Source of the DNA: Chiloscyllium plagiosum
Taxonomy: Eukaryota
Length of the DNA: 64,000 nt
Direction: 5' to 3'
NCBI RefSeq assembly: GCF_004010195.1
Contig: NC_057753.1
Coordinates: 13,740,485 to 13,804,484, forward strand
Positions within the stretch are counted from its first letter, which is position 1, and every line of letters begins with the position of its first letter. Positions 4,567-55,499 of this stretch are shown piece by piece. A program made the translations under genes and the position numbers. The notes beneath the pieces were generated by a model. That model had not been told where the DNA came from. It made no database searches and was given only the letters and a program-made list of their open reading frames with translations.

Positions 4567-4651
4567 GTAAGTTTATTACTCTTATCAGATGCCTTATTTT
4601 ACCAAACCTTCAATATCGTATCACGTTAGAAAGATGTTTCTTTTCTTACAG

Positions 4652-4933
4652 CGGTTCAGACCGAGGATCAGAGCTCACAGGCTGATCAGAAGTTCACTCT
4701 GGAAGGGGAACGAGTTAAACTGCATTGTTTGCAGTCCATTGGTACTAGTGATACTGTGGCCTGGTACAGCCAAACGCTGTCAGGGATTCCGAGATATATC
4801 AACTCCATATACCAGGGCAACCAGACTAAAGGCCGTTATACGTTGTCTTTTGACCGAGATAGGAACTCCTACATCATGTTTATAGAAGACACCGTGTTCG
4901 AGGACGCTGGAACGTATTACTGTGCGAAGCAGA
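4652..4933 (+). CDS. Intact antigen-receptor V exon (V1; probably TCR alpha/delta locus)
   Basis: Open frame (S)VQTEDQSSQADQKFTLEGERVKLHCLQSIGTSDTVAWYSQTLSGIPRYINSIYQGNQTKGRYTLSFDRDRNSYIMFIEDTVFEDAGTYYCAKQ has the V-set Cys, Trp and D-x-G-x-Y-Y-C motifs and is followed directly by an RSS. Confidence 0.92.
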
Positions 4934-4972
4934 CACAGTGAGTGAAAGTGTAGATCCACCTGTACAATAACT
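4934..4972 (+). promoter_or_regulatory. 23-RSS of V1
   Basis: CACAGTG (4934-4940), 23-nt spacer, ACAATAACT (4964-4972). Confidence 0.93.
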
Positions 4973-6386: not shown

Positions 6387-7278
6387 GTTGATTACCCAAG
6401 ACGTGTGGGTCTGTGACCATTCAGTTTATCACCTATTGCTATCTGCTATACCAATCTGTCCTGGACCGCAAATTTGGAAACATTTGCTGGAAACTACACA
6501 ATATATTATTTCAGGATTTTTCATTTATTTAAACAGTTCATATTGGTATGCCATAAAAAGAAAAGTATCAGCCACATAACTCAAGCGCCAGGGTGCTATG
6601 ATCTGCAAAAAATATATATAATCTAAACATCTTTACTGATTGTCAATCGTATTGACGTTGTTGAAATTGCACTATCAAAATATTGAGTTTCAATACACCA
6701 GACATGAATGTTGTGGCTACAAGAGAAGGTCAGAGAATCAAAATGCCAAAGTAAATAACAAATCTTCTGACTACAAAAGCCTGCCCAGCATCCACTATTG
6801 AAATGAAATACTTTCCATTTCTGTGGTACAGTGTTTTTCCAACAACGCACAATAATCTCGAGACTGTTCAGAGAGAGAAAAAAAATCTCAGGTCAAGTCA
6901 TTCGAGGAGAACAGACTTTCCCAGAGATCAAAATGCTTGCTGTGAAGTGATATCAATTGACTGCGAAAGTGACCCAATGAATTGTAGCTCAGCACAATGA
7001 AGACGGGCTAAATATTCAATTTTGTTAACTTTACAAATCGAAAACCAACAGGTGTCAGAAAACAATTTATAACACTATTTGCTGGGATGAATATAATTTA
7101 CTAAGATAAACGAACTGCGCACGGAAAACTCGCCTGCTTCTGTTCAGTGTTGTGCATTTTATCATCATCATTTGAAAAAAAAAGATTTCGTGGTTCTTTC
7201 CCAGCCAGGACTCAATTGTTCTTTATTTCTCTGTGTGATATCGCCCCCTGTTGAGCAATACCTGGAACTCTCAAGGTG

Positions 7279-7777
7279 GATTTTTCTACGACATCCGCCA
7301 TATCTAACCATTTCACGACAGGACTGCATGGCACAGAGATACTTGCCGCTGACGTAGATGAGGATGCTGATAACTTTTACTTCGTGACCTTGTCACTTTT
7401 ATTAAGCTGAGAGGGAAATCGATTCGTCATGCAGTTGTCCCTCTGCACACTGCTCCCAATATTTCGAAACATGGACTGCACCATAATTCGTCAGGGTTAG
7501 AATCACTTCTCTTCAAATTACGGGTTGAGGAGATATTCTTTACCTCGTCAATCATCCTTTCAGCACATGTCTTTAACAAAATATCTTGCTGTCTCCATTA
7601 CAACACTTGAAAAAATCTAATAAAAATACAGCATGGCACTCTGCATCAGTATCAGATTGACCAATATAATCTTCACATTCACTGTTATTCGACCAACAAT
7701 AACATTTGTATCGTAAAAATAAGATACTCACTGAGAATGTATTCAATGCAGAGGAACGGTAAGAAACACTGTTGAGT
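7279..7777 (-). pseudogene. Inverted TCR V pseudogene of the same family as V4 and V5 (leader, V, degenerate RSS)
   Basis: Minus strand: leader remnant TQQCFLPFLCIEYIL|GTGAGT (donor 7731-7726, no ATG). V remnant CAERMIDEVKNISSTRNLKRSDSNPDELWCS...NRFPSQLNKSDKVTK*...YLCAMQS aligns to V4 (FAEMTVGEGTDIVLTCNLKTSDSNPFAYWYS...DRISSNKTGKIAE...YLCALQP). Nonamer-like AGAAAAATC at 7287-7279. Confidence 0.8.
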
Positions 7778-11646: not shown

Positions 11647-12000
11647 GTGTAGCAGGTGCTAACCGAGTTTTCCAGGAGACACCTTCATCGATGAAGTTTG
11701 AGAAATAAAATACTGTGGTCACTTGTGAAATTTATTCGAAAACTGCAGTTACATATTCTTTGCAACTACATGGTCACTATTGGGATGAAGCCCAATATTC
11801 TTGATTTACATTCCTAACTTCCTAAGTGGTAATGCTATCAGAGCCGAGTGTGTGGGTCCTCGATTTTCTGCTCACATTGACTGTTTAAAAAGTGACGACA
11901 ATTTCACCAATAATGAGCTGCAAATGTCTGATATTACAATGTATTACTGCAAACTGAGAGTCACAATAACAGGTCCCAAGAGGAAGCATCGCACGAAGCC
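11647..12000 (+). pseudogene. TCR alpha/delta-type V pseudogene (V2) with degenerate RSS
   Basis: Acceptor ttgcag ends at 11646. GVAGANRVFQETPSSMKFEK*(TAA 11706)NTVVTCEIYSKTAVTYSLQL..., then a frameshift, then FLIYIPNFLSGNAIRAECVGPRFSAHID...ELQMSDITMYYCKLR. Heptamer CACAATA at 11962-11968, degenerate nonamer near 11991-12000. Confidence 0.85.
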
Positions 12001-12219
12001 ACCGCCAGGTGGCGGGAGAAACGTTGATTACCAGCATTTAACAACAAATCTGGACAATGTCTCTGCATGAATGTTCCTATCAGTCCTGAATAAATGAGTG
12101 AGTCTTCCAATATAAATTAAGACCCCAGTGAGCAATTAGGAAATGCAATATGGTGGTGTTATTAAATACCCCGTCTAATATATGCACGCCAATTTCGCCT
12201 GTTCGCTGTTTTGATGCTG

Positions 12220-29993: not shown

Positions 29994-32562
29994 ATGATGG
30001 GGAAATGTCTCATACATGTTACTGTTACGATAGACATGTGGAGACTGTTTAAGGAACAATTGTTGCAAGTGATGAATAAATATGTCCCTCTGAGACGGCA
30101 AGAAGTGGTGAGATAAAGGAACTTTGGATGATGAGAGCGGTGGAGCTTCTTGTCAAAATGAAAAAGGTAGCTTACATAAGGTGGAGGAAGCGAGGGTCAA
30201 GCTCAGCTCTAGAGGATTACAGGCAGGCGAGGAAGGAGATCAAAAATGGTCTGAGGAGAGCCAGGAGGGGGCACGAGAAAGGCTTGGCAGAACCGATTAG
30301 GGAGAACACAAAGGCATTTTGCACTTATGTGAGGAATAAGAGAATGGTCAAAGAAAGAGTAGGGCTGATCAGGGATAGCATATGGAATTTGTGTGTGGAG
30401 TCTGAGGAGGTAGGGGAAGCCCTAAATGAGTTTTTTGCTTCTGCCTTTACGAAAGAAACGAACTTTGTAGTCAATGAAACCTTTGAAATGCAGGTGTGCA
30501 TGCTGGAATGGATAGGGATAGAGGAAGCGGATGTGCTGAAAATTTTGTCAAACATTAAGATTGACAAGTCGCCAGGCCCGGACCAGATTTGTCCTCGGCT
30601 GCTTTGGGAAAAGAGAAATGCAATTGCTTCGCCACTTGCAAATATCTTTGCATCCTCGCTCTCCACTGGAGTCGTACCTGAGGACTGGAGAGAGGCAAAT
30701 TTAATTCTTCTCTTCAAGAAAGGAAATAGGGAAATCCCCGGCAATTACAGACCAGTAATTTCACGTCTGTCGTCTGCAAGGTGTTAGAAAGGATTCTGAG
30801 GGATAGGATTTATGAGCATCTGGAAGAGCATGGCTTGATTAAATGCAGTCAACACGGCTTTGTGAGGGGCAGGTTATGCCTCACAAACCTTATCGAGTTC
30901 TTTGAGGATGTGACGAGAAAAGTTGATGAGGGTCGAGCTGTGGATGTGGTGTATATGGACTTCAGCAAGGTTCCCCATGCTAGGCTCATTCTGAAGGTCA
31001 GGAGGAATGGGATTCAGGGGAACATAGCTGTCTGGATACAGAATTGGCTGGCCAACAGAAGACAGCAAGTGGTAGTAGAAGGAAAATATTCTTCCTGGAA
31101 GTCTGTGGTGAGTGGTGTCCCATAGGGCTCTGTCCTTCGGCCTCTACTGTTTGTAATCTTTATTATTGACTTGGATGAGGGAATTAAAAGGATGGGTCAA
31201 CAAGTTTGCAGGCGACACAAAGGTTGGAGGTTGACTGTATAGAGGGCTGTTGTAGGCTGCAGCGGGACATTGACAGGATGCAGAGATGGGCTGAGAGGTG
31301 GCAGATGGAGTTCAACCTGGATAAATGCGAGGTGCTGCATTTTGAAGGTCGAATTTGAAAGCTGAGTACAGGATTAAGGATAGGAGTCTTGGCAGTGCGG
31401 AGGAAAAGAGGGATCTTGGTGTGCAGGTACATAGATCCCTTAAAATGGCCACCCAAGTGGACAGGGTTGTGAAGAGAAGCATATGGTGTTTTGGCTTTCA
31501 TTAACAGGGGGATTGAGTTTAAGAGTCGTGAGATCTTGTTGCAGCTCGAAAAAATTTTGGTTAGACCGCACTTGGAATACTGCATCCAGTTCTGGTCACC
31601 CTATTATAGGAAAGATGTGGATGCTTTGGAGAGGGTTCAGAGGAGGTTTACGAGGATGCTGTCTGGACTGGAGGGCTTATCTTATGAAGAAAGGGTGACT
31701 GAGCTCGGACTTTTTTCATTGGAGAAAAGGAGGAGGAGAGGGGACCTAATTGAGGTATACAAGATAATGAGAGGCATAGATAGAGTCGATATGACTAACA
31801 GAAATGACTAACACGAGGGGTCATAGTTTTAAGCTGGTTGGAGGAAAGTATAGCGAGGATGTCAGTGGCGGGTTCTTTACACAGAGAGCATGGAATACTT
31901 TGCCAGCAGTCATTGTGGAAGCAAGGTCATTGGGGACATTTAAGAGACTACTGGACATGCATATGGTCACAGAAATTTGAGGGTGCATACATGAGAATCA
32001 GTGGTTGGCACAACATGGTGGGCTGAAGGGCCTGTTCTGTGCTGTACTGTTCTATGTTCTACAGTTCCTCACCATCGTATCTATTCTCAGTATGTTTCTC
32101 CTTCACAGAAAAAGGCTGATTTTTACAAACTGAATGTTTTTATTTGTCGACGAGACGGTGAGGATTATGTTGATCAATAGGAGGCCGATGTTAATTGAAA
32201 TTCTTACTTCGTTTCACATGTTATAATAGAGCCAGCAGGATACAATGGAACAACAGTTTGCTGAAATGACGGTTGGAGAGGGAACGGATATCGTCCTGAC
32301 CTGCAATTTGAAGACAAGTGATTCGAACCCTTTTGCATACTGGTACAGTCGGCGCACCATGCAGCCTCCAGATTTCATGTTTCGGCCTATTGGGATGAAT
32401 GTGCACAGGAACACTGGCGCCAGCGATCGAATTTCTTCAAATAAAACTGGCAAGATCGCTGAACTGTCATTCTGCAATATCCTTATCCCTGACAGAGCCG
32501 TGTATCTCTGTGCGCTGCAGCCCACACTGATGCAGAGATGTAGTGGATCCTGTACAAAAACC
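29994..32562 (+). pseudogene. TCR V pseudogene (V4; V5 family) with its leader split by a CR1 insertion
   Basis: Leader halves MMGKCLI (29994-30014) and QFLTIVSIL|GTATGT (32062-32095). V exon DTMEQQFAEMTVGEGTDIVLTCNLKTSDSNPFAYWYS...DRAVYLCALQP (~32225-32522). No AG at the expected acceptor, and an in-frame TAG at 32227. RSS CACACTG-24-ACAAAAACC at 32523-32562. Confidence 0.88.
30017..32063 (+). mobile_element. 5'-truncated CR1 LINE (~2.05 kb)
   Basis: ORF2 pieces 30128-30787, 30781-31125 and 31491-31811 (KSPGPDQI, SQHGFVRGR, RPHLEYCIQFWSP). ttctatgttcta tail, flanked by TACA duplication. Confidence 0.95.
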
Positions 32563-32764
32563 CACATTGAGAGTATCAGTTTGTGTGCACTAGAGTGCAC
32601 CCTAATATAGAGCAACGCAATCAATTGAGTCCAAGGCTGGGGGAGAACCACAAAACTGTTCAAAGATGTCGAAACGTACAACGCTGAACACGAACAAGGG
32701 CGATTCTATTTCACAGTTAGACTGCATCAGCAAGCCCAACTTGTAGTACCAATTGGCTTTATAA

Positions 32765-32895: not shown

Positions 32896-33389
32896 TTTAC
32901 CTTAATGTATTGTTCTCTGATATTTTTCAAATTTCGATTACTAGACCTAAATGATTGAAGTCAAAAATAATAAATGATTCGTCCAGGGATTGCATGTATT
33001 GCCCCAACTTTGAGAGACTTTTCAATCTGTATTACAGAAATGAATTCTGCGTTGCAAATACATTCTGAGTCATTGGTTCATAAGAGAAATGCTATAAACC
33101 TACACTGACCTTACTTGATTTCTTCGTGCACTCCAATCCTGTTCTTGTACATCCAGGAACTATGGAAAATTCAGACGTCTGTACTGAAGACATGTAGCAT
33201 GGAGGGTGAAGGGGTTAGGTTGTGACGTGGGGAATGAGGGATGGTGAAGAGGAATCTCTTGATTTACCAGGATGGCACTCTGTCAATTTGCACAAGTTAA
33301 ACAAAATGATTGCTTCAAATATCGATGGTTTTCATCTCGCCCACAGTGCAGTGTATCTTTCTACCATGTATCCTACATTACTGCAGAAA

Positions 33390-33693
33390 TTAGATTAGAT
33401 TCCTTATAGAGTGGAAACAGGCCCTTCGGTCCAACCAGTCCACACCGACCCTCCGAAGAGTAACCCACCCAGACCCATTTCCCTCTGACTAACGCACCTA
33501 ACACTACGGGCAATTTATCATTGCCAATTCAACTGACGTGCACATCTTTGGACTGTGGGAGGAAACCAGCGCACCCGGAGGAAACCCACGCAGAATGTGC
33601 AAACGCCACACCGACAGTCACCCGAGCCTGGAATTGAACGTAGGACCTTGGTAGCAGTGAGATACCAGTTCTAACCACTGAGCCACCGTGCCG
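33390..33693 (-). mobile_element. HE1/V-SINE-type tRNA-derived SINE
   Basis: Minus strand cggcacggtggctcagtggttag...gtgggtttcctccgggtgcgctggtttcctcccacagtccaaagatgtgc, with an (atcta)n tail. Confidence 0.9.
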
Positions 33694-50170: not shown

Positions 50171-50216
50171 ATGAAGAACTACCTTGCACGACTCTTCATC
50201 ATTGTCTCATTTCTCA
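50171..50216 (+). CDS. Leader exon of V5 (MKNYLARLFIIVSFL)
   Basis: ATG at 50171, phase-1 GTAAGT at 50217, intron ending tttttcttag at 50331. Confidence 0.92.
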
Positions 50217-50331: not shown

Positions 50332-50638
50332 AATACAGTTGTGAAGACACAGTGGAACAACCCGTTCCTGAAATGACGGTTGAGGAAGGAAATAATGTTA
50401 TACTCACATGCAACTTTAAGACAAGTGATCTTAATCCTTATGTTTTCTGGTACAGTCAACCCGCAGGACAGCCTCCGCAATATCTACTTTACATGATTAC
50501 AGCTGGGACTGTAAACAGGAATCCTGAATTGTCTGATCGTTTTTCTTTGACATTTGAGAAAACTACAAAGAAAACCAATTTAACGATCAACAAGGCCTTC
50601 GTCTCTGACTCTGCTGTGTATTTCTGTGCAATGAGACC
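50332..50638 (+). CDS. Intact TCR alpha/delta-type V exon (V5)
   Basis: (K)YSCEDTVEQPVPEMTVEEGNNVILTCNFKTSDLNPYVFWYSQPAGQPPQYLL...DRFSLTFEKTTKKTNLTINKAFVSDSAVYFCAMRP. The framework and the CAMRP ending are typical of TCR V-alpha. Confidence 0.95.
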
Positions 50639-50678
50639 CACACTGATGCAGACAGATGGCATGGCCCGTACAAAAACT
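50639..50678 (+). promoter_or_regulatory. RSS of V5 (24-nt spacer)
   Basis: CACACTG at 50639-50645, spacer 50646-50669, ACAAAAACT at 50670-50678. Confidence 0.9.
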
Positions 50679-50699
50679 CACTCTCAGACTTCCAATTAG

Positions 50700-50717
50700 A
50701 GGTCACCAGGGGGCGGT
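50700..50717 (+). promoter_or_regulatory. Putative CTCF-binding element downstream of the V5 RSS
   Basis: aGGTCACCAGGGGGCGGt closely matches the CTCF core GGCCACCAGGGGGCGC. Confidence 0.65.
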
Positions 50718-51004
50718 CTCACACTGCGGAACATAACAATTCATCTCTACAGGGAGAATCACAGACCAAATTCTTGTAGTAATAAAAACGGATCTCAGTA
50801 ACAAATGTTTAGTTACATTTGCAGATTTATATCGCTATGTAAGTTCAGGATGCCAATATGGTAAGAATAACACTCAGAAATATCTCTGTGCTATTCTGTT
50901 TCATGTTATTTTGCAAATGAACGACTCCAATGCCTTTCCTTCTCATCTCTCCATTCAGTTCCTTCCGCTCAACACACTGGATCACATTTACTTTGCACTT
51001 GCAT

Positions 51005-54263: not shown

Positions 54264-55499
54264 ACATAGGTTAGGGTTTAATAATTTGAAATTTCACTGT
54301 ATACCCTGACATTCTCGTTTTCCATAATTTATGCTTTTCTCCAACCAAACTTCCGCTTCATATGTTCCTCAGCCGTTTAACAGATGCAGCATGTGGACAG
54401 ATTTCACAACACATAGTCATAAGTTTTTGCACCACCTCATTGAACAGTAACCAAGAGCCGCCCAATCCTTCCCCTCTCCTTCATGTTGGCATTTTTTCAG
54501 CCCACAGATTTCATTTGCTATTTTCACTGTGTTTTGAACTTCTTAGTGCAGAGATTGCTTCTTCTTGTTCATTTCTGTCATTTATTAGATTAACAGTGAA
54601 TTGAAACAGGGATTTGTGACTCCGCATTGACTGAACTTTTCTGGCGGGAAAGACAGATAGACACAGGACGTATTAATCAAAATAATTCCGTACTCCATCC
54701 TCATCATTAGTTCACGGCCGATTGGGTTTTTGTTCCCAGTAAAACTCCATTCTTCCAATCTTTGCTTTAAAGTCTCTTACAAGAGTAATGATGCAGTGAA
54801 GATGTTAAGATGATTATACTGATCTAAATGAACGTAATTCTGACTGTTGATGTAACTGCCACATGGTTATTGCAGCTACAGGAAATAGTGCAACATTCAA
54901 TTGTTAGTAAAACTGTTAACGACGAAATTGATAGCACATAAAAATAAAGCTTGAACACAAAAAAATCACACCAGTTCTGATATAGCCTGCATCTTTGGCA
55001 TGCTCTACAATTCACGATTTGGTTCATTGTAGAGAATTGGAGCATGAATGATAGAATCACGAATTGGTTTTTACTCCATATTTAATAGAAAAGCGAAAAT
55101 TAACAAAGTAATATTTGGCACTACCCTGAACTCTGACAATGAAATCTTGTGAAACACACGACGTTGCAAACACACAGCAGATCCCAATCAAAACTCCACA
55201 ATTAGAATTCGATGCATTCGTGATCAGATCGTGCCGTCATGCCATGAAACTAGCAAAATATGTTTAAGGTGAAGTGGCAGTAGCTCTCAAACCGAATGTA
55301 ACGTTCAACCGACGTTTGTTCAATGATCCTTCAGAGGTTTCTTCATTATGAGATAATTATTTCGTCCCATTTAGTTTTACATTGCCACGTCCACTGAAGC
55401 CTACTTTCCAATCTAATACACAACAAGCCGTTCTAAGAAAATATCCTAAATGCGTTGTATGTGTTCTACATCTAGGTTACTTCAGCCGTTTGACATTTA

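Follow-up and report, generated by a model that had tools for sequence, protein, structure and literature searches.

Does a CTCF site set just behind the RSS of a V segment help to decide the choice of that V in a shark T cell receptor locus? Almost all known RSS-adjacent CTCF sites belong to mammalian IgH, in which they set VH usage, and a full-text literature search that took in listings and the starts of abstracts (most subscription journals and bioRxiv supplements lie outside it) returned no paper on RSS-adjacent CTCF sites in cartilaginous-fish TCR loci. An initial annotation of the 64,000-nucleotide stretch analysed here (the window, positions 13,740,485-13,804,484 of NC_057753.1, hereafter C44) had taken three motifs behind V nonamers as a sign that an RSS-adjacent architecture for V choice may operate here. 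The locus is a natural test set for this idea, with close paralogues that carry or lack the site, in both orientations, on which a 'local RSS booster' can be set against a 'general folding pause site'.

The locus and its sampling

The window lies inside a V array that occupies ~12.17-14.52 Mb of C44. To the 3' side of the array, 14.552-14.562 Mb holds 10 J segments, 14.569 Mb a C exon and 14.591-14.694 Mb a J-alpha array with 105 more; the J segments and the C exon of this D/J/C end are all on the + strand. The V segments consist of a leader, a V exon and a 23-type RSS and are placed upstream of D/J-delta, C-delta and the large J-alpha array. This arrangement puts the window in a TCR alpha/delta translocon, with the alpha and delta labels assigned from the J/C/J layout. 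A search with PF09291 did not find the C-alpha exon.

We examined 1.24 Mb of the V array including the window, 200 kb of the D/J/C end, later another 200 kb of the V array, and 40 tiles at other loci. V-like elements were collected with family profiles that cover the V exon and RSS only and include nothing 3' of the nonamer, and the enrichment set comprised 248 V elements with a covered RSS end and sufficient flank. CTCF-type sites were scored with an unofficial copy of the JASPAR MA0139.1 counts, a mammalian matrix that was here scanned over the DNA of a shark, using cut-offs of at least 9 bits in an RSS flank and at least 13 bits for strong sites. Consensus strings printed in PMC6746451, including CCASYAGRKGGCRS, provided a matrix-free check.

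Three CTCF-type sites in the window descend from one

The initial annotation had placed CTCF-core-like motifs at 50701-50716 (behind V5), 32585-32601 (behind V4) and 7256-7241 on the minus strand (behind an inverted pseudo-V), about 21-22 bp past the nonamer and in the orientation of the V. All three strings are present there. On the V strand, the 19-mers that hold them all begin 21 bp past the nonamer, and with this matrix they read as CTCF cores, at 20.3 bits for V5, 10.9 bits for V4 and 13.5 bits for the pseudo-V. Mismatches to CCASYAGRKGGCRS number 1 at V5, 2 at V4 and 3 at the pseudo-V; those to mVH-CTCF number 3 at two of the sites and 6 at the other. The features of the window are as follows.

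50171..50216, + strand: V5 leader exon, ATG to GT donor, read directly, with paralogues of the same layout
50332..50638, + strand: V5 V exon, intact-looking, its frame open, with a V domain of TCR alpha/delta type
50639..50678, + strand: V5 RSS, with heptamer CACACTG, a 24-bp spacer (not 23) and nonamer ACAAAAACT
50679..50699, + strand: V5 linker, 21 bp, its length kept across the clade and its sequence conserved about like other flank
50700..50718, + strand: V5 CTCF-type 19-mer, 20.3 bits, pointing to the D/J end
32226..32522 (start approximate), + strand: V4 V exon, likely pseudogene, acceptor AG lost
32523..32562, + strand: V4 RSS, with heptamer CACACTG, a 24-bp spacer and nonamer ACAAAAACC
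32584..32602, + strand: V4 CTCF-type 19-mer, weaker (10.9 bits), 16th-17th in the window
7279..7560 (5' end approximate), - strand: inverted, frameshifted pseudo-V of the same clade, heptamer dead (no CAC)
7239..7257, - strand: pseudo-V CTCF-type 19-mer, 13.5 bits, 10th in the window, facing away from the D/J end
33130..33411 (start approximate), + strand: fourth clade member, a decayed V remnant with unrelated sequence from the nonamer onward
54945..55196 (start approximate), + strand: fifth clade member, a decayed V remnant whose site has decayed to -6.4 bits

The V5 domain finds TCR alpha and delta V domains among its best PDB sequence matches, and a protein search gave one relative, at 72% identity, that NCBI names as a Chiloscyllium punctatum protein. 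A search for ATAC runs covering window positions 50450-51000 listed none, which counts neither for nor against accessibility there. V5 is deletional in orientation with a site that faces J, and ~0.76-0.8 Mb separates it from the J segments. Its 19-mer is the top CTCF-type site of the window (p 8e-8 with this matrix), and within its linker the CTCF upstream (ZF9-11) motif is matched in part only. At V4 the leader ATG and promoter have been replaced by unrelated, repeat-like sequence; with its splice acceptor lost as well, V4 is likely a pseudogene. The nonamer of the inverted pseudo-V, AGAAAAATC, ends at 7279 on the - strand.

The three Vs had been described as all three members of one V family. 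This has to be revised, as the window holds five members of the clade and two of them, ending at 33411 and 55196, are without a site; behind the former no CTCF site is found at all. V5 and V4 are 47% identical in protein sequence and are placed in different subfamilies. The three named copies are, from their sequences, descendants of one site and not independent observations.

A 19.5-bit motif at 11999-12017 (+) overlaps the decayed nonamer of a pseudo-V of another family, f3. It was rejected as part of the feature and is probably a private gain, because the three closest paralogues lack it. A separate observation concerns the V1 family, represented in the window at 4651-4972. A relative at C44 13,984,506 has a copy at position 7,136,036 of another large contig, C9, with equal score, RSS and 3' flank, which may be an orphan copy or an assembly duplication.

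The site is restricted to one V clade

Across the enrichment set, a site of at least 9 bits at +10 to +30 on the V strand follows 15 of the 42 members of one V clade and none of the 206 other V elements, the background chance of such a site being 0.003 per element. The matrix-free check agrees, with at most two mismatches to the PMC6746451 consensus within +10 to +50 in 11 of 42 clade members and in 0 of 206 other elements, and in the later 200 kb of the array the one clade member has a site and the nine other Vs have none. In the 0-30 bp bin of the 42 clade members, 15 sites of at least 9 bits are forward and one is reverse. Most carriers start at +21, with a range of about +15 to +24 where indels occur, and they are spread over 12.29-14.01 Mb of C44, so that they are not J-proximal only. 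Scores fall below 9 bits in the remaining 27 of 42 members, among them six of the ten that look intact.

The clade comprises subfamilies f6, f8 and f10. In the V tree f10 groups with f5, apart from f6 and f8, and f5 has a different 3' flank and no site. Because the site is confined to one clade (15/42 against 0/206), we conclude that one ancestral site was multiplied by duplication; since the sites are homologous and lie within alignable flank, the 15 carriers are not independent events. For the same reason the Fisher p for 15/42 against 0/206 overstates the evidence, the 42 members being paralogues of one site. On the sequences, then, the motifs were all copied from a single ancestral CTCF-type site, placed 21 bp past the RSS in one V clade. 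The site is real and clade-specific, a variant of the known RSS-adjacent CTCF element with a putative function, and its stronger copies (at least about 13 bits) likely bind CTCF.

The sites do not extend to the full two-part form. The upstream ZF9-11 motif, defined in PMC12885311 (CTGCAGTTCC-like, 2-7 bp 5' of the core), is matched with at most three mismatches at 0 of the 15 clade sites, and a two-part site of core plus ZF9-11 motif was rejected. Mismatches to it average 4.7 at clade sites and 5.4 in the control, and the recurring part is the TTCC half only.

Family f11 shows a separate peculiarity. At C44 12,318,295 and 13,002,532 an RSS-like stretch follows the V end, and the true nonamer seemingly lies farther downstream than usual.

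Modest constraint at the key positions of the motif

The initial annotation had described a flank more diverged than the motif. For the 19-mer as a whole this does not stand. The three named copies are identical at 33/57 positions of the 19-mer, against 42/63 in the linker and 78/120 in the next 40 bp, and in an alignment of 41 paralogues the mean site rate is 1.00 in the 19-mer, 0.98 in the linker, 0.98 in the spacer and 0.97 in the first 30 bp of 3' flank. It does stand, modestly, for the eight high-information positions, of which 20/24 are identical among the three copies. Among the 41 paralogues a rate of 0.845 in these columns compares with 1.053 in base-matched columns of the flank (P=0.002), and they rank second of 82 overlapping windows for slowness. 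The alignment drops the clade member at C44 13,773,895, which has unrelated sequence after its RSS and is counted among the 42. At position 4 the consensus is T, found in 21/41 members; CTCF prefers C there.

In 19 independent sister pairs, differences occur at 31/148 high-information positions against 73/203 low-information (tolerant) positions (p=0.002), and at 62/279 positions of heptamer and nonamer, a proportion similar to that of the high-information set. The near flank (355/1335) does not differ significantly from the high-information positions (p=0.08).

These rates bear on the possibility that the site is a neutral passenger, a CTCF-like sequence that came to lie behind an ancestral V by chance, was copied by duplication and has been decaying since without a specific role. 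Such a history would have one origin, as seen here because all sites are homologous in alignable flank; it would also give a whole-motif rate equal to that of the flank, a sister-pair test against the flank short of significance, and many losses, intact Vs included. It does not readily account for the retention of key positions above both tolerant positions and base-matched flank. Retention of the site as a whole is also higher than expected: forward neutral simulation along the tree left 1.3-5.9 tips of at least 9 bits where 15 are observed, with P<=0.02 in all 12 settings (four extant strong sites by three rate scalings), although the simulation ignores indels, uses a midpoint root and may overstate neutral decay. 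The site is moreover common to f10, which stands apart from f6/f8 in the V tree, and lies in a locus enriched in strong sites. We therefore consider a neutral history unlikely, and the sequences suggest a constraint on the clade site that is motif-shaped but modest.

Intactness, orientation and RSS quality

Carriers make up 4/10 intact-looking and 11/32 broken clade members (p=1, intactness being judged by sequence only), and some of the strongest copies sit behind dead RSSs. This is unlike mouse 7183/Q52, where functional VH segments have the site and pseudogenes are typically without it (PMC6746451). Nor do the copies face D/J uniformly, as carriers number 6 of 23 J-facing (deletional) and 9 of 19 away-facing (inverted) copies. 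The intact Vs that bear a site lie at C44 13,791,162, 13,815,971, 12,845,160 and 12,436,478. Inversion turns the sites of two of the four intact strong-site Vs away from J, and sites of at least 13 bits across the V array divide into 57 on the + and 52 on the - strand, with no orientation bias. Inversion is common in this array: 55 of the 98 intact-looking Vs lie on the - strand, from which an inversion is required for joining. With about half of the Vs in this position, joining in this locus cannot in general proceed by strict linear RAG scanning.

The RSSs of the clade are themselves unusual, mostly with 22- or 24-bp spacers and CACACTG or CACATTG heptamers, the other families having 23-bp spacers. 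By an automatic filter, spacers other than 23 bp occur in 10/12 clade members against 6/86 other intact-looking Vs; a manual check placed them in 8/10 intact clade members. Four intact Vs with 22- or 24-bp spacers have lost the site (C44 13,144,016; 13,177,049; 12,805,059; 14,222,097), and the pairing of a weak RSS with a site is a single clade-level event or coincidence.

These data speak to a per-V element of the kind known from mouse VH81X, where the site stalls loop extrusion during RAG scanning (PMC7930373, PMC11153149) and which, here, would be needed for use of the adjacent weak RSS. The shark site resembles such an element in its near-mouse spacing, its place on the V strand and its clade restriction (PMC6746451, PMC4914699). 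In mouse, CBEs rescue weak RSSs (PMC11153149), which fits the non-canonical RSSs of the clade, and V5 is deletional with a J-facing site. What makes us regard a per-V element as rather doubtful is that the site shows no link to intactness, unlike in mouse, that half of the intact strong-site Vs are inverted in an array with an even strand split, and that four intact Vs keep the unusual spacer without the site, so that the pairing counts once. Of the RSS-adjacent architecture proposed at the outset, a same-strand motif at a fixed distance remains as a property of the clade, and a switch for each V is not supported.

Retention in pseudogenes and in both orientations would also fit a job independent of the adjacent RSS, such as that of a bound insulator that blocks germline transcription or enhancer spread between V units, which are often opposed, and has no role in RSS joining. 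Mouse VH CTCF sites do have enhancer-blocking activity (PMC6746451). An insulator, however, leaves the fixed 21-bp distance to the nonamer unexplained, and the clade sites are a poor match to the upstream motif with which the strength of insulators has been associated (PMC11417384, PMC12885311); we hold this explanation to be very improbable.

CTCF-type sites in the wider locus

The clade sites are part of a larger population. The V array contains 109 sites of at least 13 bits. Their density, 4.5 per 100 kb of strand, is enriched 4-8 fold over a background of 1.1 per 100 kb in sequence from a Markov-3 simulation and 0.5 in the control tiles. Family f1 (C44 13.40-13.53 and 12.17-12.27 Mb) has a same-strand, promoter-side site in 13/17 Vs, the strong motifs lying ~560-660 bp 5' of the nonamer end. 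A strong same-strand motif is also seen in family f13, at about -720, and the duplicated unit at 13.40-13.53 Mb has recurrent intergenic CTCF sites on the opposite strand.

At the other end of the locus, the interval from C-delta to the first J-alpha holds four reverse, V-facing CTCF motifs of 12-20 bits (C44 14,576,811-14,589,452). Some have a TGCAGT-like upstream element, and the cluster is in a TEA-like position. Within the J-alpha array, a V-facing CTCF-type motif stands 38-48 bp past the nonamer of the 12-RSS in 15/35 members of one J-alpha subfamily and in 1/70 other Js, that one being the first J-alpha (C44 14,591,306). At these J-alpha sites, departures are only slightly fewer in the key positions than in the linker (0.163 vs 0.197). 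The motif-bearing subfamily spans C44 14,612,000-14,694,000.

Comparison with known systems and a proposed folding model

The closest counterparts of the clade site are those of mouse and human IgH, among them the mouse D-proximal 7183, Q52 and other families (PMC6746451, PMC4914699, PMC7930373). As there, the shark motif follows the nonamer on its 3' side at a short fixed distance, shares the strand of the V, is confined to a clade and sits beside weak-looking RSSs; in mouse, RSS-associated sites are limited to clan 2/3 VH (PMC4914699, PMC6746451). The differences are considerable. The shark locus is TCR alpha/delta, and the core-equivalent base is at 22 bp, against core starts 17-19 bp past the nonamer in mouse and 19 or 48 bp in human (PMC6746451); the +21 start is 3-5 bp longer than the mouse spacing. 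The RSS-to-motif linker is poorly conserved in mouse, where >98% of VH sites share one orientation (PMC6746451), whereas the shark linker is about as conserved as the motif and the shark sites, candidates by sequence, occur at broken Vs too, in both orientations to J and not only J-proximally.

Table 2 of PMC5859386 lists RSS-adjacent sites for IgH and two mouse TCR-beta Vs only. Mouse Tcra/d sites are upstream of V promoters or intergenic, with 129/144 facing J (PMC5859386), and the mouse TEA site is V-facing and placed before the J-alpha array (section 20 of that paper). The shark locus is similar in its V-facing site before J-alpha and in the promoter-side sites of some V families, and dissimilar in that its array has no orientation bias. 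In its proportion of inverted Vs, about half, and in having CTCF motifs in both orientations it is like mouse Igk, where extrusion and short-range diffusion with weak impediments serve Vs of both orientations (PMC11153149). Unlike the shark clade, with its non-canonical spacers and its sites next to the RSS, mouse Igk relies on very strong RSSs and on intergenic sites.

The reading that we prefer, and that we judge about evenly balanced between right and wrong, is that the clade site binds CTCF and is one among many places where extrusion pauses and the V array is folded against V-facing CTCF sites at the J end, not a required switch for the adjacent V. Machinery of this kind exists in cartilaginous fish: at the TAD borders of skate, CTCF motifs are oriented in a manner consistent with loop extrusion (PMC10115646). 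CTCF would bind the stronger clade copies (at least about 13 bits), and extrusion anchored near the start of the J-alpha array would stall at the bound copies. Stalled extrusion would keep the nearby stretch of Vs close enough to the recombination centre to meet its RAG by diffusion, as in mouse Igk. The V-facing motifs before the J-alpha array and inside it could be the partners of the clade sites. The neighbouring RSS would gain contact time as a side benefit; with spacers of 22 or 24 bp in most intact members of the clade, this gain may be of some importance to it.

A wider proposal, tentative and on balance improbable, is that CTCF-guided choice of V(D)J partners dates to the jawed vertebrates and that shark TCR alpha/delta employs clade-specific designs of it: RSS-adjacent sites at Vs, promoter-adjacent sites at Vs, RSS-adjacent V-facing sites at J-alpha, and a TEA-like cluster. 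The RSS-adjacent V sites would then offset the 22- and 24-bp spacers, possibly by looping to the J-alpha sites. A clade-specific version in a shark TCR alpha/delta locus, beside mouse-like promoter sites and a TEA-like cluster, would put the origin of CTCF control over antigen-receptor folding at the jawed-vertebrate root.

Other antigen receptor loci

Small samples of Vs were available from loci that we take, from translated motifs, to be TRB, TRG, IgH and IgL. None of 12 TRB-type Vs has an outward site at +21, and one has a motif of ~9 bits at +40; there is no such site at the 6 TRG-type, 2 IgH-type and 4 IgL-type Vs. Two TRB-type Vs, at C41 18,557,070 and 18,564,959, have inward motifs of 15 and 13 bits, 38-47 bp past the nonamer. 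Twenty tiles on C9 cover a non-rearranging Ig-superfamily cluster and were used for background only. The cluster is large, at 2.0-4.3 Mb of C9, and its V-type Ig domains lack an RSS; they end in a J-like way and have a splice donor.
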